From Escherichia phage Lw1, in sequence record KC801932: a stretch of 64,000 nucleotides of DNA. One strand, written 5' to 3'. Under the pieces are notes generated by a model, which saw only the letters and a list, made by a program, of their open reading frames with translations, was not told where the DNA came from and did no database searches. Below are positions 2,251 to 54,311 of the stretch, piece by piece (the stretch's first letter is position 1; every line of letters starts with the position of its first letter). Position numbers and translations under genes: made by a program.

Positions 2251-2391
2251 TCAGTAGTCACCCATAGGTTGAGAAGAAGCAACGCTCAATACGAGGAAAG
2301 AGCACTTGTTGATCCGGCAATATTCTTTTGCACAGTGAACACTACCTTTCATCACAAACCCGTTTGAGAACACCAACCAGTAAAGTTTCAT
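2251..2391 (-). CDS. small protein candidate (46 aa, MKLYWLVFSNGFVMKG...)
   Basis: ATG at 2391 preceded by AAGGAGG SD; C-terminal part of ORF-track 2251..2493. Confidence 0.35.
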   Translation of the reverse strand: MKLYWLVFSNGFVMKGSVHCAKEYCRINKCSFLVLSVASSQPMGDY

Positions 2392-2430
2392 GATTACCTC
2401 CTTTGTTTCGACACCCCTAATATAACAAAA

Positions 2431-2458
2431 GCCCCTGCACGAATGCAAGGGCTTTTTC
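2431..2458. terminator. hairpin with T-runs on both strands (bidirectional terminator candidate)
   Basis: gcccctgcacgaatgcaagggc stem-loop followed by ttttt on plus and ttttgtt on minus. Confidence 0.5.
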
Positions 2459-2626
2459 AAATATTTTTCAACATGCGTAGTTGAGGTGGACAATCTGGAG
2501 AAGCAATCAAACGATCCAGGCGAGACATAACGCGACGGTATCCGTCATACTCAAACTTGATTTTAGGCGGTACGTAGTTCACGTTAATTGCGTTGCGCGT
2601 GTTAATGTTCGCTTCGTACTCAGGGA

Positions 2627-3148
2627 TCACGAACTCTCGCCGCGATGTTCGATGTGCTCCGTGATATCCTCAACAGTCTTATCAAGGTCCAGAGATTCAG
2701 CATCTTCCTTGATAATAGTCAAATCTACAGGCAGTGTCAACAGTCTTTTCACTCCGCTGATATCTTCGATACGAGAATCATACGCAAGGGTAACATGCGG
2801 TTTGTAGTTGTCAAAATCGTAAGTCGCTCCGGCATCCATCGCATCATTGAAACGGCTATGCAGATAATCAGACTCCAGAACACCGACGATAGTGTTACCG
2901 TATTTTGTGTCCCACTTCTCTACGTCAACCAGTCGGGCAGGTTCAGAGATACCAGAGGCAGGGAACAAATCAACCGTCTTACGGCTATACACAATCGTTG
3001 TATGAAGTTTTTCAGCAGACACCGGATTCTCTACACCCAGAAGTTTTTGCACTTGTGCAAGCGCTTCACAGGAAGCCTGATCGAACTTCGCACACATATA
3101 GATCCCCGAATCAACTACGGGTTTCGCAACTTCAATAAAACTTTTCAT
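2627..3148 (-). CDS. acb1: 2H phosphoesterase-fold protein, Acb1-like (anti-CBASS cyclic-oligonucleotide phosphodiesterase candidate; T4 gene 57B position)
   Basis: Two H-x-T motifs (HTTIV at His49, HVTLAY at His118) typical of 2H phosphoesterases; lies immediately next to 57A and gene 1 as 57B does in T4; SD GGAG before ATG 3148. Confidence 0.6.
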   Translation of the reverse strand: MKSFIEVAKPVVDSGIYMCAKFDQASCEALAQVQKLLGVENPVSAEKLHTTIVYSRKTVDLFPASGISEPARLVDVEKWDTKYGNTIVGVLESDYLHSRFNDAMDAGATYDFDNYKPHVTLAYDSRIEDISGVKRLLTLPVDLTIIKEDAESLDLDKTVEDITEHIEHRGESS

Positions 3149-3158
3149 GTGTACTCCA

Positions 3159-3181
3159 AATGAAAAAGGGGCCGAAGCCCC
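3159..3181 (-). terminator. rho-independent terminator candidate downstream of 57A
   Basis: ggggccgaagcccc hairpin followed by T-run on minus strand. Confidence 0.5.
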
Positions 3182-3202
3182 TAGTGGTTAAACGCCTAAG
3201 CG

Positions 3203-3454
3203 TTAAGCATCTTTTGTTTCTGCGTCATCGGCTTCCGGCAGAAGTGCTTTGATAGCACCCAGCAGAGCATCAGGGGTTACACCCTGGGAACCGTCGATTT
3301 CCAGCAGACCGCAAATTTGACCGACGAGTTGGCGATGGCTTTGCAGTTCCTGATCTTTACCCTGAATGATTTCGTTCAGATCGAATACACGGGCTTTCAG
3401 AAGCAGGATGTCACTTTGCAGTTGCTGGGTTTGGTTTTTGGTTTGTTCAGTCAT
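3203..3454 (-). CDS. 57A: tail fiber assembly chaperone gp57A-like
   Basis: 83-aa acidic coiled-coil protein (MTEQTKNQTQQLQSDILLLKARV...) resembling T4 gp57A N-terminus; synteny 57B-57A-1-3. Confidence 0.6.
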   Translation of the reverse strand: MTEQTKNQTQQLQSDILLLKARVFDLNEIIQGKDQELQSHRQLVGQICGLLEIDGSQGVTPDALLGAIKALLPEADDAETKDA

Positions 3455-3465
3455 TGTTTACACTC

Positions 3466-4125
3466 TTAAAAGTTAAATACATTCAGCACGTCAGTTTTCA
3501 ATTCACCAAGCGTACCATTATTTAGGATGATAATATCGTTTGGTTGGGGTTTCAATCCTTTCTCAGTTGAATGGCTATCGTCTTCCCCAGTTTCGCGTTC
3601 GATGAATACAAATTTAGTCCCGAACTTGCTCAGGTATTTATATTCATGTTTTTGTCGAACGTCTGTAATGATAAAGTGATCTTTATCGGATTTCAAGATT
3701 TTCTTCAATACAATGTCAGTCCATACAGAATCGTTCTCATTGCAAACGATGTCAGTACCGAAAACCTGCATCAAACGGCGTATTGTCCAGGGATGTTTGT
3801 TTGTTTGGCAAATTTCATACGCGATGATATCAGCATTATTAAGCCAGTACCCGCGTTTAGTCAACGATTCAATGCCATTAGCAAACAGCATACGCGCACC
3901 TTCGTTAGACATCAACAGGGGTGCTTCCCGATCCCCTGAATAGAATGGGTTTGTTTTAGAGAGTTCTCGCAGATAGCGATCCCCTGATGCAGACATTCCA
4001 TTTCTCAGGATACTCTTTATTTCATCAGCAAGCGCGATTGCTTCAACGTTCTGATAGTTATCCAAAACGAATTGAGAAACGGTGTCTTTACCTGTTCTCT
4101 TTTTTCCGCAAATACCATAAATCAT
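3466..4125 (-). CDS. 1: deoxynucleoside monophosphate kinase (gp1)
   Basis: P-loop GKKRTGKDT, RRLMQVFGTD and DVRQKHE motifs shared with T4 gp1; synteny. Confidence 0.85.
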   Translation of the reverse strand: MIYGICGKKRTGKDTVSQFVLDNYQNVEAIALADEIKSILRNGMSASGDRYLRELSKTNPFYSGDREAPLLMSNEGARMLFANGIESLTKRGYWLNNADIIAYEICQTNKHPWTIRRLMQVFGTDIVCNENDSVWTDIVLKKILKSDKDHFIITDVRQKHEYKYLSKFGTKFVFIERETGEDDSHSTEKGLKPQPNDIIILNNGTLGELKTDVLNVFNF

Positions 4126-4661
4126 GATTCTTTTTTCCGTGGAGTCGGCACGAGTACCTTTCCGTCTATCTCAATTTCCATATGTGCGAAGTTGAACATA
4201 GCCATACAGGAAACGGCTTCATCCGAGTCATTAGTGTACATAAGCTCAAGCTCTCCCAGGTTGGAGGGCCAAGCACCATAAAAGCGAAATGTCGCCACAG
4301 TTTTTGATTGCGAGTTATCCAGGATGTGTAAAGCCATTGCCTGTTGTGGTTCACTCCATCGAATTGAATCGAAGGTGTTAAAATCACAGGTTCCAAGCAT
4401 CCACAGGTAAACACCCAGATACGAACGCAATTCTTCATCAACAGCAAAACGGATAGTCAACGGATCGAACTCCATTGCAGATCCAGGGATTTTCCCACGG
4501 ATCATAGGGTTCAATGGTACGTCCGTAATTGGAATGTTGACAGAAGGTAGTGTAACACCCTGAATTTGTAGTTTCAACCCTTTCATATAATCATTATCAG
4601 GAATATCTAACATAAAGTTAGTTGGTGAAATCTGGTTCAGGATCATAGCAGTAGTGTTCAT
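4122..4661 (-). CDS. 3: tail completion / sheath stabilizer protein gp3-like
   Basis: 179 aa, position between gene 1 and gene 2 as in T4; GGAGA SD before ATG 4661. Confidence 0.6.
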   Translation of the reverse strand: MNTTAMILNQISPTNFMLDIPDNDYMKGLKLQIQGVTLPSVNIPITDVPLNPMIRGKIPGSAMEFDPLTIRFAVDEELRSYLGVYLWMLGTCDFNTFDSIRWSEPQQAMALHILDNSQSKTVATFRFYGAWPSNLGELELMYTNDSDEAVSCMAMFNFAHMEIEIDGKVLVPTPRKKES

Positions 4662-4698
4662 TAATGATCTCCATTTTGTAGATATTTATGTAGACCGT

Positions 4699-4860
4699 GA
4701 GCGAAGCGAACACACGAACGAAGTGAGTGTTTTTAACTCAACTACATAATTATATATTTATATTTTATATATAGAGAAAAATGTAGTTTTTGGTATGGTT
4801 TTTAACCAACTGTAAACTATCCGTCTTCGCTTCGCTTGACGGAACTCGCTTCGCTCGTGA
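4699..4860. repeat. ~140-bp dispersed repeat, copy 1 (AT-rich core with internal hairpin aactacat/atgtagtt, flanked by GC-rich inverted repeats gagcgaagcga / tcgcttcgctc)
   Basis: Near-identical to 39685..39849 (core aactacataattatat...agagaaaatgtagtttttggtatggtttttaaccaactgtaaactatccgtcttcgcttcgct) with a few indels. Confidence 0.85.
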
Positions 4861-4885
4861 TCTTGAAAAACTATTTGACCCTTTC

Positions 4886-4893
4886 AATAAATA
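4886..4893 (+). promoter_or_regulatory. late-promoter-like box AATAAATA (7/8 to T4 TATAAATA) followed by 8-bp palindrome ataggtat/atacctat
   Basis: Located ~40 nt upstream of internal-protein ATG 4932. Confidence 0.3.
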
Positions 4894-4931
4894 GGTATAT
4901 CATACCTATACTTTCAAAAGAGATTGAAAAC

Positions 4932-5717
4932 ATGAAATCATTCAAAGAACTACTGTCTGAATCTGTTCAGACCAAAAAATTTGCTAAAACTGTTGATCTG
5001 GTTGACCGTGGTAATGCTTCAAAAGGTCAGATCGGTTTCCTGCACTTTGCACACGGTGCTGATTACGATGTGTATGCGCCGGACTCTCACGATCTCGCCT
5101 ACTTCGGTAAAGGTGTTGTTCGCCTGAAAGGTAAAACCACTGGTAAAACTCAGGCTGCATATGTTGACTGGGCGAAAGGTACGGTTTCTTTCTATAGCGG
5201 CGATCCGGCAGATGACCTGAAATTCGACAAGCCAGCGAAATTCAAAGGCGCTTCCCTGTACAAAGAAGCCGAAGAAAATCTGGATCTGTATAATCAGTTA
5301 GCGGAAGACTTCGAAATTGATGTACCGATGGATGAAGCACTGGTGAAAGGTAAGGTGTACAAGCTCCCAAGCAACGATATGCGCTTGCTGTATACCGGAC
5401 GTACCAAAAACAAGCCTACAGGTGAATACGCTGTGTTTACGGTTGTAGATGCCTCCGGTAAGCCTCGTCTGGTATCGGGTAAACGATTTACCCAGGAATA
5501 CAAAGGCGATATGCTGTCTAAACTGGTTCTCGCTGAATCGGAAGATCTGAACGAGGCCGCTAAAGGCATTCGCGAAAAAGTTATTGCGGTGTTGGTGAAG
5601 CGCGGGTTTAACGAAAAAGATGCAGAAAAGATGGTTGATAAAAACCTAAAAGATGCGATGAAAGTTCGCCCTGGTGCAACTCCAGGAAAACTAGCGGAAA
5701 TCGTGAGCACCTTGTAA
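4932..5717 (+). CDS. internal head protein with capsid targeting sequence (IPIII-like, lysine-rich)
   Basis: N-terminus MKSFKELLSE matches T4 CTS consensus MKTYQEFIAE (gp21 protease-cleaved leader); basic K-rich body; start at ATG 4932 rather than ORF-track 4836. Confidence 0.65.
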   Translation: MKSFKELLSESVQTKKFAKTVDLVDRGNASKGQIGFLHFAHGADYDVYAPDSHDLAYFGKGVVRLKGKTTGKTQAAYVDWAKGTVSFYSGDPADDLKFDKPAKFKGASLYKEAEENLDLYNQLAEDFEIDVPMDEALVKGKVYKLPSNDMRLLYTGRTKNKPTGEYAVFTVVDASGKPRLVSGKRFTQEYKGDMLSKLVLAESEDLNEAAKGIREKVIAVLVKRGFNEKDAEKMVDKNLKDAMKVRPGATPGKLAEIVSTL

Positions 5718-18497: not shown

Positions 18498-20311
18498 AAC
18501 AAGAAATTATTATAGGTAACGTGGTTGATGACGGCGCTGGCGATTACTTACGCCGTGGTGGTCAAAAAACAAACGCGAACTTTACCGAATTATATGAAAA
18601 GCTGGGTGACGGGGAAATCCCTCACCCAGCGGGTGCGTGGAAAACGCATTCCGCTCCTACATTGAACCCTATTTTTGGTGATTCATGGGCGCTGAATACC
18701 AGTAACAACCGTATTACTGTAAACCTCCCTAAAGGGGGCGTAAGCGATTATAACAAGGTTATTCGTCTGCGTGATGTTTGGAGTAAATGGGCGGTTAACA
18801 ACGTGCGTATCGTTCCGGCAACGGGAGACACCATCAAAGGTTCACCAACTTACAAAGAACTGTACAAAGATTTCATGGATGTTGAACTGGTTTATTGTGC
18901 TCCTGGGCGTTGGGAATACGTCGAGAACAAACAGGTTGACAAAATAACAACTTCGGATCTGGCTACCGTAGCGAAAGAAACCTATATCGCAACTCAGGGA
19001 CAGACAGACTTCCCGAATGTGTTCGGTCCTGGCAACATGTACAACGTTCGTGCTCTCGAAGTCTACTATCGTGGTAACTTGCTGTACATCGACGATAAGA
19101 ACGGCTTTAATGAAGCAAACAGTGATTACGGTTCGCCTGGGGCAACTGCGGGGCAACTCGTAGAACTGGATGGAACCAACATACGCCTTAAACGTCCCTG
19201 TAACGCTGGTGACACGCTTCAATTTGTCACCTATATGGATGGTATAGCAACATGGCGTTCGACGTATGAAGCGCATACAATGCGCGTATACAACACTGGA
19301 GACACTGAACTTGTGAGCGTACCTGGTGAAATCTGGGTTGGCGATCTGGCTAACAAGAAAGAATTCACCACTGCTGAATTTGGTATCAGTTCCCGTGTGT
19401 TGATTAACCCGAATTCATTCGAACTGCTGCTGAACGGTCGTCAGCTTGTAAAAGCAGGTGATGCGGATCTTCCTACGTTTGTTTGTGAAGGTGCGGAAGG
19501 TTATGATGAAGATAGCTGTTTGGCTAACTCCGGTTTATGGGTTCCGTCTGGACAGGATTACAGTCTAATCTTTGTTAACTCTATTGTGACTGGGATTAAG
19601 TTTCATCAGGCACTGGAAACCCGCGATGTGGTAACAATCCGTTGGTTCAATAACGATATCGGAACCGTAATGGAATGGGACGGCGTAGGCGGTATTAAAG
19701 AGCATACGGATAAACTGTATCTGAATAACGAAGACGAATTGACTTTGGTTAATCAGATTGAATATACAGACTACAACAACCCGTCACAAAAAACAATGCG
19801 TAAGGTTGCAGATCCTTTCGTTGGTCGTCTGTTGGATTTGCAAGCGTTTTTCGATGTGATTCACCCTATTGGGACAATTTACGAAAACGCACACAACGAC
19901 GCAAACCCAGGCGATTATATGGGATTTGGTATCTGGACACGATATGCAGAAGGGATGTTTATTGCTGGTTGGACTACCGATGCAGCAGATAGCGATTTTG
20001 GGCTGAACAATAACGATCTGGATGGTTCCGGTCAACCTACACACACATCAGGTGGTACTGGTGGTGAACGCGGCTACGAAATCAAACCGATCAACGTTCC
20101 ACAAATCGAATCTACCGATAAAGTTCTGATTAAGGACGATAACGGGATCATTATCATTGGTGGTTGTCAGGTTGACCCAGATGCAACAGGACCAGGATAC
20201 ACTAAATACCGTGAGGATGTATTGAAAGTAAATCAGGGTAATACTACTCCTGATAAGCTGAAAACGCTCCCTCCGTATATTACTGCACATCGCTGGATAA
20301 GGGTAGCATAA
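18494..20311 (+). CDS. 10: baseplate wedge subunit / tail pin gp10
   Basis: 605 aa, synteny. Confidence 0.85.
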   Translation: MKQEIIIGNVVDDGAGDYLRRGGQKTNANFTELYEKLGDGEIPHPAGAWKTHSAPTLNPIFGDSWALNTSNNRITVNLPKGGVSDYNKVIRLRDVWSKWAVNNVRIVPATGDTIKGSPTYKELYKDFMDVELVYCAPGRWEYVENKQVDKITTSDLATVAKETYIATQGQTDFPNVFGPGNMYNVRALEVYYRGNLLYIDDKNGFNEANSDYGSPGATAGQLVELDGTNIRLKRPCNAGDTLQFVTYMDGIATWRSTYEAHTMRVYNTGDTELVSVPGEIWVGDLANKKEFTTAEFGISSRVLINPNSFELLLNGRQLVKAGDADLPTFVCEGAEGYDEDSCLANSGLWVPSGQDYSLIFVNSIVTGIKFHQALETRDVVTIRWFNNDIGTVMEWDGVGGIKEHTDKLYLNNEDELTLVNQIEYTDYNNPSQKTMRKVADPFVGRLLDLQAFFDVIHPIGTIYENAHNDANPGDYMGFGIWTRYAEGMFIAGWTTDAADSDFGLNNNDLDGSGQPTHTSGGTGGERGYEIKPINVPQIESTDKVLIKDDNGIIIIGGCQVDPDATGPGYTKYREDVLKVNQGNTTPDKLKTLPPYITAHRWIRVA

Positions 20312-35172: not shown

Positions 35173-35820
35173 ATGAATGAATCCCAACTCAATGAAAACG
35201 GCGATATGCTGCTAATCGAGGAATGGGGTTTACCTTGTGCGGATATTTCCGATTCGATTTTAGAATCGGTCGGTGCGTCTAAAGACGGTAAACTTCGGAT
35301 TGAAGGTATTTTCCTACAGGCTGAAAAAGTAAACCGTAATAAACGACTGTACCCGAAAAAAGTATTAGAAGAAGCAGTAAATGATTATATCAGAACTCAA
35401 GTTAATACCCGTCAAGCACTGGGTGAAATGAATCACCCTCCGCGCCCGAATGTGGACCCGCGAAATGCTTGCATCCTCATTGAAAAAATGTGGTGGAAAG
35501 GTAATGACGTTTGGGGCCGTGCGGTTGTTGTCGAAGGTGACAACGCGGATGGTGATAAACTTGCGGCGTTAATTCGTGCTGGTTGGGTTCCTGGTGTTTC
35601 TTCTCGCGGACTAGGTAAACTTGCCGATTCCGGTAAAGGTTACGGTATCGTACAAGAAGGGTTTAAATTGGCTGTAGGTGTTGATGTAGTTTGGGGGCCA
35701 AGCGCTCCAGATGCTTACGTTAAACCAATAACCGAATCTCAGCAGACGAAACCGCTTGTTGAGAATATTAGTGCTGATGACGCTTTCAGAAAATTATCTG
35801 AACGTTTGAAAGGTCTATAA
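35173..35820 (+). CDS. 21: prohead core scaffold protease gp21
   Basis: 215 aa, synteny directly before gp22. Confidence 0.9.
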   Translation: MNESQLNENGDMLLIEEWGLPCADISDSILESVGASKDGKLRIEGIFLQAEKVNRNKRLYPKKVLEEAVNDYIRTQVNTRQALGEMNHPPRPNVDPRNACILIEKMWWKGNDVWGRAVVVEGDNADGDKLAALIRAGWVPGVSSRGLGKLADSGKGYGIVQEGFKLAVGVDVVWGPSAPDAYVKPITESQQTKPLVENISADDAFRKLSERLKGL

Positions 35821-46970: not shown

Positions 46971-47000
46971 TTGACATCGTTTTGCTGATGGATTTATAGT
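46971..47000 (+). promoter_or_regulatory. sigma70-type promoter (TTGACA - 18 nt - TATAGT)
   Basis: In divergent intergenic region upstream of ORF 47051. Confidence 0.45.
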
Positions 47001-47980: not shown

Positions 47981-48298
47981 ATGAAAACGATTCACTGCCG
48001 CGAAGAACACGTTGTTTATTACCACGGATCTTGTACTGCTGCTGGGATTGAGAGCATGTTGTTGCCTCCTTGTGCTTCTGAAACTCTGTCTGAAAAAGGC
48101 AGAAAGAAAAATCTGGATCGTGTTTTCTTCACTGCTGACATCGGACTTGCTCGGATCTATGCTGGAAGGGCTGCACGTTCTATAGGTGGTGATCCGGTAC
48201 TGTATCGGGTTGTGTGTCCGGTTGATGCTGTATGTATGAACGACGACAAAGGCGCGAGCGTTTACCATGCTGCATGGGCTTTCTGTGAGGAAGTATGA
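47981..48298 (+). CDS. small Arr-like ADP-ribosyltransferase-fold candidate (105 aa)
   Basis: VYYHGS ... RVFFTADIGLARIYAG ... LYRVVCPVD resembles H-G-S/T, Y-F-S/T and hydrophobic beta-strand elements of rifampin ADP-ribosyltransferase (from memory, not searched). Confidence 0.45.
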   Translation: MKTIHCREEHVVYYHGSCTAAGIESMLLPPCASETLSEKGRKKNLDRVFFTADIGLARIYAGRAARSIGGDPVLYRVVCPVDAVCMNDDKGASVYHAAWAFCEEV

Positions 48299-48785: not shown

Positions 48786-49126
48786 TTATGAAAATCGTTC
48801 AGCGTAATATCAGCGAAGTTAGCCAGGAAGAAAAAGTTCAGATTCATTTCAAATTTAATGATCTGAAACGTGGTTATGCAGAAATTGCCCGTGTTCATGG
48901 GCTGGACAATGGGGATATTTATATGATTGTCCAAGAAATTGAGCGAATTCGTGCTTTCCGTGCGGAGAACCCGAAAGTAAAACGCGTTCTGCGTCGTGTA
49001 TATGTCAACAAACACCGCAAAGCGGCGAAACAAGTTAAAACCAAACGCGAACCGCGTCCAGATAACAAACGTAAAGCAATCAACGGTGCTATGGCGCTGG
49101 CTTTCCAGGAAGCGGGTTTAGTGTAA
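48782..49126 (+). CDS. hypothetical basic protein (114 aa)
   Basis: ORF track; K/R-rich C-terminus. Confidence 0.5.
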   Translation: MIMKIVQRNISEVSQEEKVQIHFKFNDLKRGYAEIARVHGLDNGDIYMIVQEIERIRAFRAENPKVKRVLRRVYVNKHRKAAKQVKTKREPRPDNKRKAINGAMALAFQEAGLV

Positions 49127-49135
49127 GGGGCTGAC

Positions 49136-49666
49136 ATGAGTCGTAGACAAAATATGGAACGTTGGACTGGTGTTGTAACCAGCAGTGTTAAACCAGTTAC
49201 CGCTGTAGTGAAAGAAGTTGTTGAAGAAACTCCGGTTAAAACTCAGATGGTTATTTCTCTGAGTGATGAAGAGTTAGAGCATCGTCGCCGTGCGAATCAA
49301 ATTGAATTCGATCTGCGTATCGCTCGTTCATACAACAGCAAAAATGATGATGCTCGTAGCCGGAATCTGCAATTTGCTCTTACGTTGAGTGATTGGACCT
49401 CTTTAATGAGTCAACCAACTTGCTTGTATTCTGGGAAGGTGTTTAGTTCTCGTGGAGATAGCCCGAATTCTCGAACGATGGAACGAATTAACCCGATGCT
49501 GGGTTACACTCCAGAAAATACGATCGCAGTGACAAAAGCCGCTAACAGTGAAAAATCATCACTTGATGCGTTTATGAAGGGTTCGGTAATCCTTCCAGAA
49601 GTAAAACTGAAACTGTTACGCAAAGCCGCGTATCAAATTGAAAAACAATTGAAAATCAAAGGTTAA
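49136..49666 (+). CDS. hypothetical protein with degenerate HNH-like C-terminal motif
   Basis: ERINPMLGYTPENTIAVTKAANSEKS resembles HNH_3-type motif lacking the canonical His pair. Confidence 0.4.
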   Translation: MSRRQNMERWTGVVTSSVKPVTAVVKEVVEETPVKTQMVISLSDEELEHRRRANQIEFDLRIARSYNSKNDDARSRNLQFALTLSDWTSLMSQPTCLYSGKVFSSRGDSPNSRTMERINPMLGYTPENTIAVTKAANSEKSSLDAFMKGSVILPEVKLKLLRKAAYQIEKQLKIKG

Positions 49667-49670
49667 TATT

Positions 49671-50717
49671 ATGTTTGTGAAATATTCTTCTCTTACTAAC
49701 CATTACGAAGGTAAGTTCATTAATGGCGTGATCATGAATGGCCTTACTGGTGGTGTGTGGTGTGCTCGTGAAAAGATACACGGTACAAACTTTAGTCTGA
49801 TTACTTCGGACGGTGAAAAAGTCATTCCAGCAAAACGTAGCGGTGAAATCCTTCCTACTGAACAGTTTTACGGTTGTGAACCTGTCGTTGCAAAATATTC
49901 TAATGCTGTGCGCGAGTTGTGGGAAACCCTCGCAAATACCTGTGAATATAAGGAATACGCTGATATCGGTTCTCTGGTTGTACAGGTATACGGCGAATTT
50001 GCGGGGCGTGGTGTTCAAAAAGATGTTGATTACGGAGAAAAAGATTTCTATGTATTCGATATCCGTGTGAATGATAAATTTTTACCAGATAACATTGTTG
50101 CATCGGCTGCTGTTTGTGTTGGTTTGAAAATGGCTCCATTGCTGGCATATGGTACGTTTGAAGAGATCCGCGAACTGCCTATCACGTTTGATTCTGTTGT
50201 CAACCTGGCTAATTCCGGCGCAATTGTTGCGCAAAATGGCGTTGAACCTGCGTTCAAAAACTTCATGACTCTGAAAGATGGTGAAGGTGAAAACATCGCG
50301 GAAGGTTTCGTGATGAAGCCCGTCGAACCTGCTTTCATGCCGAACGGTGAACGCGTTGCGATCAAATGCAAAACGACGAAGTTCACAGAGAAGAAGAACA
50401 AGCAAGCGAACCGCTTCAATGCTCCTGTTGAACTGTCTGAAAATGATAAAGTTAAACTGGATGTGTTTACCTGTTACCTGAACGAAAACCGCGTGAAAAA
50501 TGTTTTGTCTAAAATTGACAGCGCAAATCTCACTGCAAAAGATTTCGGTCGCGTAATGGGCCTGACGGTACAGGATGCGCTGGAAGAAATCGAACGTAAT
50601 TATGGCCCGTTCCTGGAACAGTTCGAGAATCCAACGCTGGCGAAGAAAACCTTCACTAACGAAGCGTCAAATCTGGTTCGTGAGAACTGGGGCGCAATCC
50701 TGAACAATGAATTTTAA
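49671..50717 (+). CDS. rnlB: RNA ligase 2 (RnlB)
   Basis: MFVKYSSLTNHY..., REKIHGTNFSL (ligase KxHG-type motif I), GEFAG.GVQK, RVAIKCK, GRVMGLTVQD closely parallel T4 Rnl2. Confidence 0.9.
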   Translation: MFVKYSSLTNHYEGKFINGVIMNGLTGGVWCAREKIHGTNFSLITSDGEKVIPAKRSGEILPTEQFYGCEPVVAKYSNAVRELWETLANTCEYKEYADIGSLVVQVYGEFAGRGVQKDVDYGEKDFYVFDIRVNDKFLPDNIVASAAVCVGLKMAPLLAYGTFEEIRELPITFDSVVNLANSGAIVAQNGVEPAFKNFMTLKDGEGENIAEGFVMKPVEPAFMPNGERVAIKCKTTKFTEKKNKQANRFNAPVELSENDKVKLDVFTCYLNENRVKNVLSKIDSANLTAKDFGRVMGLTVQDALEEIERNYGPFLEQFENPTLAKKTFTNEASNLVRENWGAILNNEF

Positions 50718-51291
50718 AACGGTTCTGGACAACGCGAAGACGGCTACCCTGATCGGTAGCCGTGAACCCCCCGAACGTATCGCAAACCTCGCAATCAAGA
50801 TCGGACGCGCTTTAAGTGATCGGGAAATATTCGCTTACTCTGGTGGTGCTCCAGGAATGGATAGTCATTTTTTATTTGATTACTCACCAGAAAGACGGCG
50901 TATAATTCTTCCTGAGAACGGTTTTAACGGGTTGTACTCAAATGGTAAGGATATCATCGACTATACAGAATACGACACGTACAAAGCCGCTGACGAAGCG
51001 AGAAAGGTAGCTGGACACTTCGACAACCAAAACGAATGGACACAGCGCCGATATGCTCGAAATTCCATGCAGGTGCTAACCGAACATCTGGATACGCCTA
51101 CGGATTTTGTGTTATTCTGGGCTGTTGAAAAAGAGTTTTGTGTGAAAGGCGGTACTGCGATCGCAGTAAGATTGGCCCGACTGTATGGCATACCCTGTTT
51201 CAATCTCTGGAATGAACGGGTATTAAATGAAGTTTGCGACACTTTGGGGATTAATACTAAACCTCCAACTTTGGATTTTCTCTGGTGCTAA
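50707..51291 (+). CDS. SLOG/DprA-like Rossmann-fold protein
   Basis: YSGGAPGMDSHF motif reminiscent of DprA/LOG-type nucleotide-binding fold. Confidence 0.45.
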   Translation: MNFKTVLDNAKTATLIGSREPPERIANLAIKIGRALSDREIFAYSGGAPGMDSHFLFDYSPERRRIILPENGFNGLYSNGKDIIDYTEYDTYKAADEARKVAGHFDNQNEWTQRRYARNSMQVLTEHLDTPTDFVLFWAVEKEFCVKGGTAIAVRLARLYGIPCFNLWNERVLNEVCDTLGINTKPPTLDFLWC

Positions 51292-51357
51292 CTCCTGAAC
51301 AATCACGTAATTACGAACGCCTCGCAGTTGAAGAGGCATTAAAAAAGGCGGAATATA

Positions 51358-51786
51358 ATGGTAGAAATCAATGGGATCGGGGTAGTCGGTGTAACCCCCG
51401 CAAATCGCAGTCAAAAGGATGATCCGCGCTGTGGGCGTAGTCCAACACTGGCAGAACGTGCGCGTAAGCTGGTAGACGACATGAACGCGAAGATGGTCGA
51501 AGAGTCGCGGAACGATATCACGGCGTATGTTCTGAAATATGCGACAAAACAATCATATACATTTGATATGAAACGTTTTGTTGGTGCTAATTTAGGTCAA
51601 GAATGCACACAAAAAGCATACGATGATCTGGGTGAATGGCTGAAATCAGAAGGGTTGACTTTTGATACTATGGCGAACCGTCTGAATGCGTATTCGAATT
51701 ATCCGAGTGGAATCCGTTCTCGTCGTATTCAGACGAGTAATGATCGCGACGTGTACAGCGAATTCACTTACTTCATCACTTGGTAA
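51358..51786 (+). CDS. hypothetical protein (142 aa)
   Basis: ORF track. Confidence 0.5.
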   Translation: MVEINGIGVVGVTPANRSQKDDPRCGRSPTLAERARKLVDDMNAKMVEESRNDITAYVLKYATKQSYTFDMKRFVGANLGQECTQKAYDDLGEWLKSEGLTFDTMANRLNAYSNYPSGIRSRRIQTSNDRDVYSEFTYFITW

Positions 51787-51805
51787 AAATAATTCGAAAT
51801 AGTTG

Positions 51806-51833
51806 TTGACGGGAGTTGTGAGTGTGGTAATAT
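51806..51833 (+). promoter_or_regulatory. sigma70-type promoter (TTGACG - 16 nt - TAATAT, TG at -14) embedded in inverted repeat acgggag/ctcccgt
   Basis: Upstream of ORF 51874; stem arms at 51809-51815 and 51837-51843. Confidence 0.45.
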
Positions 51834-51873
51834 AGCTCCCGTAGATAAGACACTAACCCAAAAGGAAAACATC

Positions 51874-52143
51874 ATGGAAATCAGATTAATCCCTACTTGC
51901 GCTGGTTACTGCTTGGCCCTGAACGGCGTAGCAAACAACGGCAAAGGCTTACGGGCTAACGTTGAAGCAATGCTGAACGAATTAGCGTTGCGGAGTGAAC
52001 CAGGGATGCAGTATGAGTATGATGACGTTGCAACCAGCGTTAAAATCTCTAATTTGGTTTTGGACGGTGTTGACTGTGCGGGTTGGTGGGACTGTTACAT
52101 CGACTACACTGACAACCGGGTTTTCTTATTGACCAGCAATTAA
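51874..52143 (+). CDS. hypothetical protein (89 aa)
   Basis: ORF track. Confidence 0.5.
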   Translation: MEIRLIPTCAGYCLALNGVANNGKGLRANVEAMLNELALRSEPGMQYEYDDVATSVKISNLVLDGVDCAGWWDCYIDYTDNRVFLLTSN

Positions 52144-52151
52144 GGAATATC

Positions 52152-52565
52152 ATGAAAGATTATATTTCAGAAGCTGAGGCTCTTGAACAAAGCGGTTATT
52201 GTGTCAACGTCGAAGATGAAGACGAAGATGACGGCTATGATGGTGGTGTTATGTGGGGGCTTAAACGTCCTCAACGCAAAACCCCAGTTCAGTATTCCGA
52301 TGGTTCGGTAAGATACGAAACGGTTGTCAAAGAAGTAAACGGGCGTGTCATTACGTCCGAGCGACAGAAGGACATCAAACAGTTGTATGATGTTGCGAAA
52401 GCCGCTAAAGTGGGAACCATGATTGTTTGCCCTACGTGCAAAGAGTTGCACAATAAGACGACTTATCACAAGGTGTTCTGCTCTAATGGCAAAAAATCCA
52501 GGAAAGACTGTAAGAGTAAATACTGGAACACGATCCATCCAGAACGGTTAGATCGTATCTTTTAA
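52152..52565 (+). CDS. hypothetical protein with C-terminal Cys cluster (137 aa)
   Basis: ORF track; CPTCKELH...C..G. Confidence 0.5.
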   Translation: MKDYISEAEALEQSGYCVNVEDEDEDDGYDGGVMWGLKRPQRKTPVQYSDGSVRYETVVKEVNGRVITSERQKDIKQLYDVAKAAKVGTMIVCPTCKELHNKTTYHKVFCSNGKKSRKDCKSKYWNTIHPERLDRIF

Positions 52566-52588
52566 ATCAAAACGTGGAGTACGTTTAA

Positions 52589-54022
52589 ATGCAAAAATTT
52601 ACTGAACTGAATAGCCTGATCACCTCAACTGATTCCTACAAAGTGTCTCACTGGATGCAGTATCCACAAGGCACTGATGCAACGATGTTCTATATCGAAT
52701 CTCGTGGTGGTAAATTTGATGAAGTCGTAACTGCTGGCGTTAACTACGTTGCGCGGGTACTGGCTGAACCTGTTACCATGAAACAAGTTGAGTTGGCGCG
52801 GGTGCTTTACCGTAAGCACTTCGGGAAAGAAATTTTCAACTATGAAGGATGGAAAGAGATCGCAGAACTGGGTTACACCCCTGTGATTTTCCGTTCTATT
52901 CCAGAAGGTACAGTTGTTCCGGTTAAAAACGCCGTTGCGACCGTGTTCTCTGAGAATCAATTCTCCTGGTTGGCTGGTTGGTTGGAAACAATGACGATTC
53001 GCGGTATCTGGTATCCGTCATCTGTTGCGACTCTATCCCGTGAGTGTAAAAAGGTTCTGGCTCAGTACCTGAATATGACTTCTGACCTGACTGGCGAAGC
53101 ATATAATGTTACACTGGGTACACGTCTGCATGACTTTGGGGCGCGGGGCGCGACCTCTGCTGAGTCTGCGGGTATTGGTGGGCTGGCGCACCTTTACAAC
53201 TTCGTTGGAACTGATACCGTCGAAGGGATGATTATGGCAATCAGCCTGTTTGCGGATCATCAGACTCTGTTTGATGAACTGGAAAATGTCGAAGCCGCTG
53301 GCATTTCGATTCCTGCTCGCGAACACTCAACGACGATTTCCTACGGTAAAGAAAACGAAGAAGACGCATACAAAAACAGCATCAAAATGTTCGGTACTGG
53401 GTTCTACGCTTGTGTGTATGACTCATGGGACTATAAAGCCGCTGTTGATCGCATTGCTGAGTATAAAGAGAAAATCATTGCTGCGGGTGGTACTCTGGTA
53501 GTTCGTCCAGATTCAGGGGATATGATCGATAACATCATGTATACCCTTCGTAAATTGGCGCAAATTTTCGGATACACCGTAAACAGCAAAGGTTATAAAG
53601 TTCTGCATAACGCAGTTCGTATCATCCAGGGCGACGAGATCCACGGGCCTGAGACAATCAACCGTGTGTTAAGCTGGATGGAAGCGAACAAGTGGTCAAG
53701 CGAGAATATCGCGTTTGGTATGGGTGGAGGTTTGCTGCAAGAAGTTACCCGCGATACTCAAAAGTATGCCGAAAAGCTGTGCGCTATCCGTGTGAATGGT
53801 AAGTGGACAGGCGTTTACAAATGTCCGAAAGGTTCTGAGTGGAAAAAGAGTAAAAAAGGTTTGCTGATGACCATCACTAACGGTATGGAATTCAAGACCA
53901 TTGATATTCTGGAAGACTCAATTCCTGACGGTTGGTTCGATGCGATGGTGACTTATTACGATAATGGTTACTTGAACACCGACGACACTTTAGGGGAAAT
54001 TCGTGAGCGTAGCCGGATTTAA
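52589..54022 (+). CDS. nadV: nicotinamide phosphoribosyltransferase (NAMPT/NadV family)
   Basis: 477 aa; N-terminal TDSYKVSHW motif and overall length typical of NAMPT; GGAG SD. Confidence 0.8.
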   Translation: MQKFTELNSLITSTDSYKVSHWMQYPQGTDATMFYIESRGGKFDEVVTAGVNYVARVLAEPVTMKQVELARVLYRKHFGKEIFNYEGWKEIAELGYTPVIFRSIPEGTVVPVKNAVATVFSENQFSWLAGWLETMTIRGIWYPSSVATLSRECKKVLAQYLNMTSDLTGEAYNVTLGTRLHDFGARGATSAESAGIGGLAHLYNFVGTDTVEGMIMAISLFADHQTLFDELENVEAAGISIPAREHSTTISYGKENEEDAYKNSIKMFGTGFYACVYDSWDYKAAVDRIAEYKEKIIAAGGTLVVRPDSGDMIDNIMYTLRKLAQIFGYTVNSKGYKVLHNAVRIIQGDEIHGPETINRVLSWMEANKWSSENIAFGMGGGLLQEVTRDTQKYAEKLCAIRVNGKWTGVYKCPKGSEWKKSKKGLLMTITNGMEFKTIDILEDSIPDGWFDAMVTYYDNGYLNTDDTLGEIRERSRI

Positions 54023-54311
54023 TATCCGCGCCAACGATAACGGATCTGTAATCTTCTATAACAATCAGCCCCTTGTTGCTCGCAAGGGGTTTTTTTGTAA
54101 GCTGGTTGGTTACGGGTTCAAGTTGGAGGAAGTGGATAATTCAACTCTGAAAGAGATAGTGCGAATAGCCTATCTCCTGAAAGACAAAAAAGATGAACAT
54201 AAAGCGGTTGCAATGTTGGAGAAATTAGGCGAAACTCATTGCTTCATTATCAATCGTGGGTACAAATATGACACGATCGCTTTATTCGAAAAGGGGCTTT
54301 GTGAATTATGA
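54003..54311 (+). CDS. hypothetical ORF, start uncertain
   Basis: ORF track; 5' part contains the terminator hairpin so real start, if any, is probably further downstream. Confidence 0.25.
   Translation: MSVAGFNIRANDNGSVIFYNNQPLVARKGFFCKLVGYGFKLEEVDNSTLKEIVRIAYLLKDKKDEHKAVAMLEKLGETHCFIINRGYKYDTIALFEKGLCEL
54067..54097 (+). terminator. rho-independent terminator after NAMPT
   Basis: agcccctt...aaggggt hairpin + ttttttt. Confidence 0.65.

Follow-up and report, generated by a model that had tools for sequence, protein, structure and literature searches.

An ATG-initiated open reading frame coding for a SLOG protein directly follows the RNA ligase gene rnlB in Escherichia phage Lw1 (KC801932), within the 64,000-nucleotide stretch of DNA that was analyzed (hereafter the window; Table 1). 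The N-terminus of the product, MNFKT..., is kept among its orthologues, which supports the called start. The reading frame is well beyond chance. It has 64 database homologues with E values from 8e-118 to 6e-5, tblastn recovered homologues in 1,349 phage records, and a profile search returned 6,957 cluster representatives of the family. The gene is flanked in Lw1 by srd, rnlB, and phage genes without assigned function. The upstream rnlB product is 46% identical to T4 RnlB (tblastn), and its TAA stop codon lies at 50715-50717. A gene for nicotinamide phosphoribosyltransferase (NAMPT) follows 1.3 kb after the SLOG gene and is predicted to share a transcription unit (early or middle) with it and rnlB. 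Past the SLOG gene, the + strand of the scanned region contains a single terminator-like hairpin, at 54067-54091. Elsewhere in the window, an ORF at 47981-48298 was considered as a candidate Arr-like ADP-ribosyltransferase; it had no Pfam match and no PDB match by sequence or profile.

Table 1. Coordinates of the SLOG gene, its motifs, and neighboring features in the Lw1 window.
Feature	Position	Strand	Evidence or description
rnlB (RNA ligase 2, Rnl2-type)	49671..50717	+	Pfam RNA_ligase 1.2e-18 and T4_Rnl2_C 2.4e-14; phrog_548 2e-112
11-nt overlap ATGAATTTTAA, SLOG start / rnlB stop	50707..50717	+	sequence
SLOG gene	50707..51291	+	single-domain DprA-clade SLOG protein, 194 aa, PHROG 768
G17-S18-R19, DprA signature motif 1 (G-S/T/A-R)	50755..50763	+	48/48 invariant; profile-aligned to HpDprA G-T-R (G50-R52)
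YSGGAPGMDSHF, loop SGGAxGxD (DprA SGxARGID)	50836..50871	+	aligned to HpDprA SGGALGVD; S45, G46, G47, G50, D52 invariant
R115-Y-A-R118-N119-S-M-Q122, DprA signature motif 2 (F/L/Y-x-x-R-N/D; HpDprA F140-N144)	51049..51072	+	
G148-G149-T150-A-I-A153-V-R155, GGT loop and third basic residue	51148..51171	+	aligned to HpDprA KSGSMSSAR
NAMPT (nicotinamide phosphoribosyltransferase)	52589..54022	+	Pfam NAPRTase 7e-40 and NAMPT_N 2.5e-24

The first-pass annotation had proposed an SLOG/DprA-like Rossmann protein. Profile searches did return SLOG/DprA similarity, and DprA was the nearest relative within the SLOG superfamily by PHROG profile, Foldseek, and PDB profile alignment. The protein has the features of the SLOG (Smf/DprA-LOG) superfamily, a three-layer α/β Rossmann-like fold with glycine-rich ligand loops after strands 1-2 and strand 4. 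It matched phrog_768 over its full length (E=7.2e-62; residues 10-189 against profile positions 3-188 of 191), with no structural difference from that family. The best structural matches in Foldseek were to H. pylori DprA (HpDprA; E about 1e-6). A single-protein sequence search of the PDB gave no match, and profile alignment reached HpDprA. The DprA matches in Pfam, NCBIfam, and PADLOC were sub-threshold: PF02481 scored 21.6 bits against a cut-off of 29.6 and covered residues 7-54 only, and the dprA equivalog TIGR00732 scored 16.4 bits against a cut-off of 191. Some orthologues carry a precomputed PF02481 match. Annotated orthologues are 84-92% identical to the Lw1 protein, and RefSeq names orthologues in RB43, RB16, Miller, JSE, PaP1, DSS3phi2, and others DprA-like. 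The family is also present in N4-like, T5-like, and PaP1-like phages; no homologue was found in the first 50 kb of phage 9g (Nonagvirus). The PHROG 768 name, "DprA-like DNA recombination-mediator protein", is a label based on homology.

One Rossmann domain accounts for the whole protein, and Pfam detected no other domain in it. In comparison with bacterial DprA/Smf (PF02481; HpDprA structures 4LJK, 4LJR, and 5MLL), the Lw1 protein lacks the SAM domain and the C-terminal winged helix (DML1) and carries some 40 inserted residues, at roughly positions 70-110. The two also differ in setting, since the Lw1 gene is carried by a lytic phage and its family is fused to ADP-ribose-processing domains, as bacterial DprA is not known to be. 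The Lw1 protein is slightly acidic (pI 5.7, net charge -3). The family is mostly basic, with a median pI of 8.2 to 8.8 and a pI above 7.5 in 73% of the IMG/VR members (n=77).

Conservation of the ligand pocket was assessed with a 48-sequence alignment in which identity falls to 23%. Residues G17, S18, R19, S45, G46, G47, G50, D52, R118, G148, G149, and T150 are invariant in it. The motif YSGGAPGMDSHF, which the first-pass annotation had singled out as a nucleotide-binding loop, is a real SLOG/DprA-type loop that spans residues 44-55 and has invariant core residues. Of the DprA signature motifs defined by Wang et al. 2014 (PMC3950713), motif 1 is present and motif 2 is matched in part. The family consensus of motif 2 is L-x-x-R-N, but the Lw1 protein starts it with an arginine (R115) in place of the hydrophobic residue; R118 never varies in the alignment, and at least 90% of the sequences keep N119 and Q122. 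By alignment, R19, R118, and R155 correspond to R52, R143, and R170 of HpDprA (native numbering, which is chain numbering +4) and to R139, R234, and R261 of ShosA, and N119 corresponds to HpDprA N144. The arginines of HpDprA and ShosA are needed for ssDNA binding, as shown by experiment, and R52 of HpDprA gates the ssDNA-binding pocket. Position 155 is lysine or arginine in 37 of the 48 sequences. The catalytic motif of LOG enzymes, PGGxGTxxE, is absent: the Lw1 protein reads V-K-G-G-T-A-I-A, and the position of the LOG glutamate is taken by A153, an alanine that at least 90% of the family members share. No match to PF03641 (LOG) was obtained at E values up to 1. With the catalytic motif missing and no PF03641 match, a LOG-like phosphoribohydrolase was rejected.

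The overlap between the SLOG start and the rnlB stop had also been noted, and 11 nucleotides are indeed shared (ATGAATTTTAA). Judged from this arrangement, the SLOG gene is probably translationally coupled to rnlB. Klebsiella phage RCIP0052 has the same 11-nt overlap, and a Slopekvirus has a 1-nt overlap. The order rnlB-then-SLOG occurs in at least 5 Straboviridae genera (Pseudotevenvirus, Jiaodavirus-like, Slopekvirus, Mosugukvirus, and Bragavirus) and sits in two different wider genomic contexts. Because the genes overlap, the order is recurrent, and no terminator-like site was found between them, the suggested co-expression with the RNA ligase is plausible. The specific functional tie that was drawn from it is unsupported. 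T4 has rnlB without the SLOG gene, JSE has the SLOG gene without rnlB, and in the Aeromonas T4-like phage phiWae14 the two genes are 4.8 kb apart. Moreover, an rnlB homologue within 6 kb was found at none of 80 diverse IMG/VR SLOG loci. The co-occurrence analysis across phages thus reveals synteny inside Straboviridae, with exceptions, and was dropped as functional evidence. The proposed dedicated Rnl2 partner, which would deliver bound RNA substrates, either broken ends or a nicked duplex, to Rnl2, could draw on the overlap, the lack of a terminator-like site between the genes, and the order kept in five Straboviridae groups in two contexts. However, vertical descent inside Straboviridae accounts for the common arrangement, and given the counter-examples we regard such a partner as improbable.

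We then examined which genes accompany the family as a whole. A length of 236 aa or more is reached by 38 of the 150 best representatives, and recognizable partner domains in these 38 are NADAR (6), DUF4326 (4), DUF7831 (2), Macro (1, plus 1 by phmmer), and extra SLOG copies (2). Zuri gp15, for example, consists of DUF4326 and SLOG. None of the 38 long members is fused to a recombination or DNA-binding domain. A Macro, NADAR, or DUF4326 partner, either fused or within 6 kb, was found at 14 of about 94 SLOG loci. Fusions to ADP-ribose-related domains thus amount to ~7% of the top representatives and ADP-ribose-related partners to ~15% of the loci, both being raw shares, not enrichments. Locus L061 has the arrangement Macro-NADAR-DUF4326::SLOG, and PaP1 and locus L041 have NAMPT-Macro-SLOG; NAMPT is also near the SLOG gene in loci L071 and L077. 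The Macro genes next to SLOG genes are nearest to the DarG macrodomains 5M3I (E 1e-17) and 5M31 (E 6.5e-16). The recurrent partners of the family are ADP-ribose-removing enzymes and NAD salvage, not RNA ligases. The protein may still process or sense a nucleotide, as the first-pass annotation suggested. The commonest neighbors in IMG/VR are ordinary replication and repair genes, namely SF1 helicase, FEN, PolA, and dUTPase. The SF1 Dda/RecD-like helicase occurs at 16 of the 80 loci, on the same strand as the SLOG gene every time. A DnaQ-like exonuclease and an SbcC-like protein are further neighbors in diverse viral contigs, and DNA ligase genes lie beside the SLOG gene in a T5-like Vibrio phage. 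In the 64-kb window of Lw1, no Macro, NADAR, or DUF4326 gene was found, and only NAMPT is nearby. Xman, which is closely related, has a separate AdfN-type NADAR and a DUF4326 ORF, both located elsewhere, and further encodes NadM and Nudix; the phage lineage of Lw1 encodes UvsX.

NADAR and DarG are de-ADP-ribosylating enzymes that act on G and T of ssDNA or RNA; T4 gp30.3/AdfN counters DarTG1 (PMC11825919, PMC11125620, PMC11833690). Viral SLOG domains were surveyed by Iyer, Burroughs, Anantharaman, and Aravind in 2022 (PMC9503650), who assigned them mainly to a YpsA-like clade and predicted that they act on soluble ADPr derivatives. The PHROG 768 family has in common with those proteins its stand-alone members, its enrichment in larger phages, its Macro/NADAR/DUF4326 fusions, and its links to NAD salvage. 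It differs from them in being nearest to DprA and in keeping the ssDNA-binding residues, and the Lw1 gene differs in having no Macro, NADAR, or DUF4326 partner nearby.

Our preferred reading, held tentatively and at somewhat less than even confidence, is that the Lw1 protein is a non-catalytic binder of single-stranded nucleic acid and an accessory module of NAD+/ADP-ribose-linked repair or counter-defense, not a canonical RecA loader. It belongs, as a stand-alone protein, to the DprA/Smf clade of the SLOG Rossmann superfamily, in which it is part of a very large phage branch. The DprA ligand pocket appears to be kept, with the gating arginine of GSR, the SGGAxGxD loop, the base-orienting RN helix, the GGT loop, and the third arginine. 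This conserved pocket may hold one base or nucleotide of ssDNA or ssRNA, or a nucleotide moiety presented by it. The protein would then serve as a substrate-binding module for the phage's genes of ADP-ribose-linked nucleic-acid repair and counter-defense, and may cooperate with ADP-ribose hydrolases; such a role is suggested by the SLOG domains that are elsewhere fused to or beside NADAR, DarG-type Macro, the predicted ADPr-processing DUF4326, and NAD-salvage genes. In Lw1 itself, it would be coupled to Rnl2 translation and belong to one predicted early/middle unit with NAMPT. Several observations count against this reading. The Lw1 protein is slightly acidic and has an arginine at the first position of motif 2, and no Macro, NADAR, or DUF4326 gene is present in the window. 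The shares of ADP-ribose-related fusions and loci given above are low. The invariant D52, N119, Q122, and T150 could, from their conservation, be catalytic. The commonest IMG/VR neighbors fit a plain role in DNA metabolism equally well.

A more specific version, which we consider unlikely though conceivable, is that the SLOG family is the nucleic-acid-targeting part of counter-defense against host toxins, such as DarT, that ADP-ribosylate ssDNA or RNA. The DprA-type pocket would grip ssDNA or read the modified base, and NADAR, DarG-type Macro, or DUF4326 would remove the ADP-ribose. The removing enzyme would be fused in some phages and separate in others, as might be the case for the AdfN-type NADAR of the Lw1 lineage. 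Alternatively, the SLOG protein may shield ssDNA from the toxin.

The PHROG and RefSeq names imply a different function, that of a classical DprA-like recombination mediator or ssDNA protector. It would bind phage ssDNA in replication, recombination, or repair and help to load or regulate UvsX or host RecA, in the manner of an additional SSB or mediator. For jumbo phages, such a role was proposed by Iyer et al. 2021. DprA is nearest in both sequence and structure, signature motif 1, motif 2 apart from its first residue, and the three ssDNA-binding arginines are present, UvsX is available in the lineage of Lw1, and the helicase, FEN, PolA, exonuclease, SbcC-like, and ligase neighbors would suit it. 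On the other hand, the SAM and winged-helix modules are absent, the score for the dprA equivalog (16 bits) is far from its cut-off, and no recombinase gene was found in the examined stretches of N4-like, T5-like, and PaP1-like phages. Fusions to recombination or DNA-binding domains, 0 of 38, also contrast with the recurring fusions to ADPr-processing domains. A mediator role is a genuine but doubtful possibility. Similar doubt attaches to the reading of the same fusions by Iyer et al. 2022 (PMC9503650), who took them as evidence for soluble ADPr derivatives as the substrate and predicted a role in the NAD+/ADPr network. The protein would here be a small-molecule binder or enzyme that either soaks up, as a sponge, a host immune signal or toxic metabolite (for instance, a cADPR isomer or an ADPr derivative) or cleaves its N-glycosidic bond, in analogy to the SLOG sensor of ThsA. 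However, the LOG motif is absent, with a conserved alanine for its glutamate, and by every method the nearest relative is DprA rather than ThsA, LOG, or YpsA. NADAR and DarG-type Macro enzymes are known to work on nucleic-acid-bound ADP-ribose, so these partners do not call for a soluble substrate.

The only stand-alone phage SLOG protein with a reported phenotype that we found in the literature is PhiDruSM1 ORF83, the anti-AVAST type III gene (Ojima et al. 2024 preprint; EVADES preprint); it is not mentioned in the Silas et al. preprint. We traced it to the CAjan orthologue gp82 by the matching residue numbers R89, N90, T112, and D114. ORF83/gp82 resembles the Lw1 protein in being a small stand-alone phage SLOG protein that HHpred labels "Smf/DprA" and that has equivalent GxxxGxD, RN, and GGxGT motifs. 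It differs in its length of 130 aa and in belonging to the YAcAr/YspA SLOG family (PF10686, 2e-18 for gp82; phrog_289). ORF83 further retains an acidic residue behind its GT loop, and in the PDB it is matched best by LOG enzymes, not DprA. The Lw1 protein had no PF10686 match, and gp82 scored only 3.7 bits against the Lw1 family profile, with an hhalign probability of 0.7%. As a member of another SLOG family that the Lw1 profile does not detect, ORF83 lends no support to a small-molecule role for the Lw1 protein, and transfer of its anti-AVAST-III phenotype was dropped.

PADLOC matches to ShosA and PsyrA raised the further idea of an antitoxin mimic against ShosTA/PsyrTA, which would stand in for ShosA or PsyrA when these are titrated by phage ssDNA. 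The matches span only residues 8-53, the generic GSR...GGAxGxD region. ShosA (PDB 8ZVA), the DprA-like antitoxin of ShosTA, is a dimer-forming, RecA-binding protein with a SAM domain and one additional helix at its C-terminus, encoded beside the toxin gene shosT in bacteria and prophages. Its SAM domain and helix α14 are needed for stability and dimerization (ShosA paper); the Lw1 protein has neither a SAM domain nor an extra C-terminal helix of the ShosA/PsyrA type. ShosA is also a weaker structural match than HpDprA, and Pfam and PHROG annotation of the neighbors revealed no ShosT- or PsyrT-like gene beside the SLOG gene and no other contextual link to these systems. An antitoxin mimic is thus highly improbable.

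The classification itself is not new: the family is in PHROGs, its orthologues are in RefSeq, and phage DprA/SLOG proteins have been noted in comparative-genomics papers. The family is very common, at 1,349 phage records and about 7,000 cluster representatives, and its name implies RecA loading. The family-wide fusions and neighborhoods suggest ADP-ribose removal from nucleic acids and NAD salvage instead, both of which are active areas of phage counter-defense (DarTG/AdfN and NAD reconstitution). If a role in counter-defense against ADP-ribosylation holds, the label "DNA recombination-mediator" on more than 1,300 phage records would be functionally misleading. A real link to ADP-ribose would correct a widespread annotation.

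The SLOG (Smf/DprA-LOG Rossmann superfamily) gene is a 194-aa ORF that we judged to be real. Its product had been described in the first-pass annotation as SLOG/DprA-like from the motif YSGGAPGMDSHF, and this assignment was supported by a full-length match to PHROG 768, 'DprA-like DNA recombination-mediator protein' (E = 7e-62), together with the invariance of the DprA motif residues. Matches to other models covered only residues 7-54 approximately and were below threshold, including Pfam DNA_processg_A (21.6 bits, cut-off 29.6), NCBIfam dprA (16 bits, cut-off 191), and the PADLOC models of ShosA and PsyrA, the DprA-like antitoxins of ShosTA and PsyrTA. The phage is an RB43/RB16/Miller-like T4-like (Pseudotevenvirus), and Citrobacter phage Xman is the best nucleotide match over window 49000-52600 (88%). 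The classification is already known from public annotation and literature, and the orthologues in the RefSeq records of RB43, RB16, Miller, CfP1, and IME-CF2 bear the PHROG name. By tblastn, the family was found in 1,349 of 50,697 phage records, spanning T4-likes of several genera, N4-likes, PaP1-likes, T5-like Vibrio phages, rV5/phi92-likes, and jumbo phages. When 1.84 billion cluster representatives were searched with a profile, 6,957 matched, mostly of 165-200 aa (3,148 with E<=1e-30).

Features in the window and in related phage records
Record	Feature	Coordinates	Strand	Description
Window	Promoter-like site	46971-47000		Strong, 11/12 matches
Window	ORF	47981-48298	+	105 aa, phrog_2110
Window	srd-like ORF	49136-49666	+	Upstream of rnlB; phrog_4592 'decoy of host sigma70', E 3e-76
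Window	rnlB	49671-50717		Rnl2-type RNA ligase; TAA stop 50715-50717; Pfam RNA_ligase 1.2e-18, T4_Rnl2_C 2.4e-14, phrog_548 2e-112
Window	SLOG gene	50707-51291	+	PHROG 768
Window	SLOG motif	50836-50871	+	Residues 44-55
Window	ORF	51358-51786	+	phrog_7671
Window	ORF	52152-52565	+	phrog_7424
Window	NAMPT	52589-54022	+	1.3 kb downstream of SLOG gene
Window	ORF	54003-54311	+	GTG start, mechanically called
Window	Hairpin	54067-54091	+	Terminator-like; 10-bp stem, then T run
Xman, L101	ORF	35260-35616	-	Unannotated; DUF4326, E 1.5e-15 (local HMM)
Xman, L103	NadM-type enzyme	19106-20164		NMN adenylyltransferase/ADP-ribose pyrophosphatase
Xman, L103	Nudix hydrolase	332-745
Vibrio phage phi 3, L004	gp106, gp105, SLOG gene gp104, gp103	2349-5025		In this order; T5-like

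Among 48 aligned homologues, with identities as low as 23%, G17-S18-R19, S45-G46-G47, G50, D52, R118, and G148-G149-T150 are invariant, and P69, N119, Q122, A153, and A157 are close to invariant. The DprA domain has two ssDNA-binding motifs, G-S/T/A-R (R52) and F/L/Y-x-x-R-N/D (F140-N144), and LOG is distinguished from it by PGGxGTxxE (PMC3950713, Wang et al.). The window protein has the first motif as an invariant GSR. At the second, where the family consensus is L-x-x-R-N, it reads R115-Y-A-R118-N119, with the RN pair in place but Arg at the first position. It is a single domain lacking a SAM or winged-helix module. Profile alignment to H. pylori DprA (HpDprA; chain +4 = native numbering) places R19 on R52, G149 on G164, and R155 on R170; 37 of the 48 sequences have K/R at position 155. 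HpDprA R52, R143, and R170 correspond to ShosA R139, R234, and R261, where double mutations abolish ssDNA binding and the single mutations R139E and R234E abolish antitoxin activity (PMC12961424). In contrast to LOG, the family carries Ala (at least 90% of members; Ala153 in the window protein) at the position of the catalytic Glu of PGGxGTxxE. Because the DprA motif residues are kept and the LOG Glu position is Ala, the aligned sequences indicate that the ligand pocket retained in the family is of the DprA type and that the LOG active site is not kept. Most members are basic, with a median pI of 8.2 in the alignment and 8.8 among 77 IMG/VR members, unlike the window protein (pI 5.7).

The overlap between the rnlB stop and the SLOG start had been taken as a sign of co-expression. 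The overlap is 11 nt, no terminator-like site lies in the rnlB-SLOG interval, and the gene arrangement suggests that the two are probably co-translated. The rnlB product is 46% identical to T4 RnlB. This gene immediately precedes the SLOG gene in Pseudotevenvirus, a Jiaodavirus-like Klebsiella phage (overlap likewise 11 nt), a Slopekvirus phage (1 nt), and Mosugukvirus PM2, and is separated from it by two tiny ORFs in Bragavirus phiP4-3. In most such phages the pair ends an inh-hoc-24.3-rnlB unit convergent with gene 24, the position of rnlB in T4. In T4, gene 24 lies 29 nt after rnlB and the SLOG gene is absent; in JSE, the SLOG gene occupies the T4 rnlB position, and the 3.5 kb of upstream sequence retrieved contains no rnlB; Aeromonas phage phiWae14 carries both genes, 4.8 kb from each other. 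The SLOG gene has other neighbours in phages outside Straboviridae, and in 80 IMG/VR loci, which form 57 groups at 70% SLOG identity, no rnlB homologue occurs within 6 kb of it. These counter-examples and the IMG/VR loci indicate that the linkage is inherited synteny; a general co-occurrence across phages was not borne out.

Downstream of the SLOG gene, the scanned region contains a single + strand terminator-like site, the hairpin just past the NAMPT stop, which is also the strongest in the region. This hairpin falls within the mechanically called small ORF, and the true start of that ORF is probably further downstream. The two conserved ORFs that separate the SLOG gene from NAMPT have syntenic counterparts in Klebsiella phage RCIP0052, at 40% and 73% identity. 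Residues 54-143 approximately of the srd-like product also match HNH-endonuclease PHROGs (phrog_3118, 3e-21; phrog_3322, 2e-12), so the Srd family may have its origin in an HNH or endonuclease VII-like fold. In Vibrio phage phi 3, of unrelated lineage, the SLOG gene is flanked by parts of an NAD-dependent DNA ligase that carry separate annotations (gp106, gp105, gp103), a second ligase adjacency.

Fusions of viral SLOG domains with Macro, NADAR, and DUF4326 have been reported, and these SLOG domains were predicted to sense or cleave soluble ADP-ribose derivatives (Iyer et al. 2022, PMC9503650). Among the best 150 of the 6,957 representatives, 38 reach a length of 236 aa or more; Pfam-recognisable partners in these are NADAR (6), DUF4326 (4), DUF7831 (2), and Macro (1, plus 1 by phmmer), two carry extra SLOG copies, and SAM, winged-helix, helicase, and recombinase domains are absent from all 38. 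DUF4326::SLOG fusions are seen in Zuri gp15 and P0035. DUF7831 is N-terminal to SLOG in P0157 and P0177, one of which also has a C-terminal NADAR. Four metagenomic proteins of about 1,460-1,490 aa (P0065, P0066, P0103, P0198) hold 1-3 SLOG copies each and resemble multi-domain polyvalent proteins of phages or plasmids; P0065 additionally carries YAcAr SLOG and NADAR domains. Among separate genes, Macro, NADAR, and DUF4326::SLOG are consecutive in L061, NADAR (L053) or DUF4326 (L051, L073) lies upstream, Macro adjoins the SLOG gene in L075 and L096, and the order is NAMPT, Macro, SLOG in PaP1 and L041 and Macro, rnlB, SLOG in the T4-like phiP4-3. Counted raw, 14 of ~94 loci have a Macro, NADAR, or DUF4326 partner fused or within 6 kb. 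The linked Macro genes are nearest to DarG antitoxin macrodomains (5M3I, E 1.3e-17; 5M31, 6.5e-16), then TARG1. In L041, L071, and L077, no more than 3 kb separates NAMPT from the SLOG gene, and in PaP1 the two are also near each other.

Macro, NADAR, and DUF4326 genes are all absent from the 64-kb window. Its close relative Xman has, at other places in its genome, genes for a gp30.3/AdfN-type NADAR (E 8.5e-31 to T4 gp30.3), the NadM-type enzyme, and the Nudix hydrolase. With NAMPT, the latter two form a complete NAD+ salvage/reconstitution set, of a kind reported to counter NAD-depleting defences. The Xman DUF4326 ORF lies between nrdB and genes for an endonuclease and RNA ligase 1, adjoining the RNA-repair genes rnlA and pseT. 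Within the predicted SLOG transcription unit, the phrog_2110 product matches Escherichia phage Lw1 gp233 at 100% identity and is very well conserved across T4-like phages, at 63-93% identity among the homologues listed. Its invariant H15-G16, Y60, and E103, with S or T at residue 17, resemble minimal H-Y-E ADP-ribosyltransferases, and a few depositors label homologues 'ADP-ribosyl transferase'. It matched nothing in Pfam, or in the PDB by sequence or profile, and is an unconfirmed candidate ADP-ribosyltransferase.

In the 80 loci, the SLOG gene is found in the company of genes for DNA replication, DNA repair, and nucleotide metabolism. By raw locus counts, its neighbours include an SF1 Dda/RecD-type helicase (16/80, 6 groups, same strand every time), dUTPase and a FEN-type 5'-3' exonuclease (10 each), family-A DNA polymerase (9), DnaQ-like exonuclease (8), PhoH and a GapR-like DNA-binding protein (7 each), and an SbcC-like protein (5). 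An extra ssDNA-binding role has been proposed for DprA/Smf SLOG proteins of jumbo phages (Iyer et al. 2021, PMC7824862). A plain DprA-like recombination or SSB accessory protein would suit this setting and the pocket; given partners drawn from ADP-ribose enzymes, we regard it as unlikely. Equally doubtful is a small-molecule ADP-ribose/nucleotide sponge or glycosidase, which the fusions favour and the Ala at the LOG Glu position does not. A dedicated Rnl2 partner, suggested by the overlapping genes, is improbable given that the synteny is inherited, and an antitoxin mimic of ShosA or PsyrA, with partial sub-threshold matches against it, is highly improbable.

We tentatively favour a non-catalytic domain that would bind single-stranded nucleic acid, or a nucleotide presented by it, and would contribute to those nucleic-acid repair and counter-defence functions of the phage that are linked to ADP-ribose removal and NAD salvage; in the window it would be expressed together with Rnl2 and NAMPT. 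We infer the ligand, the non-catalysis, and the cooperation with hydrolases alike. A DprA-type ssDNA pocket and ADP-ribose-network partners seem opposed at first sight, yet they are compatible because the partners whose biochemistry is known, NADAR and DarG-type Macro enzymes, act on ADP-ribose on ssDNA/RNA bases. NADAR enzymes strip guanine in ssDNA and RNA of its ADP-ribose, and T4 gp30.3 (AdfN) counters DarTG1 (PMC11825919, PMC11125620, PMC11833690); these three papers make no mention of SLOG or DprA domains. DarG macrodomains undo the ADP-ribosylation of thymidine in DNA (PMC11833690, PMC11125620).

The sole phenotype found in the literature for a stand-alone phage SLOG protein is that of PhiDruSM1 ORF83: with this gene knocked out, the phage no longer plates on AVAST type III (Ojima et al. 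preprint; EVADES preprint). ORF83 is likewise stand-alone but belongs to PF10686/phrog_289, not PHROG 768, and its orthologue CAjan gp82 is undetected by the SLOG-family profile; we therefore rejected transfer of the phenotype to the window protein and its family. The family is very abundant in phages, its functional role is a prediction, and its name may be misleading. The hypothesis of ADP-ribosylated nucleic acid is directly testable with existing DarTG and AdfN assays.
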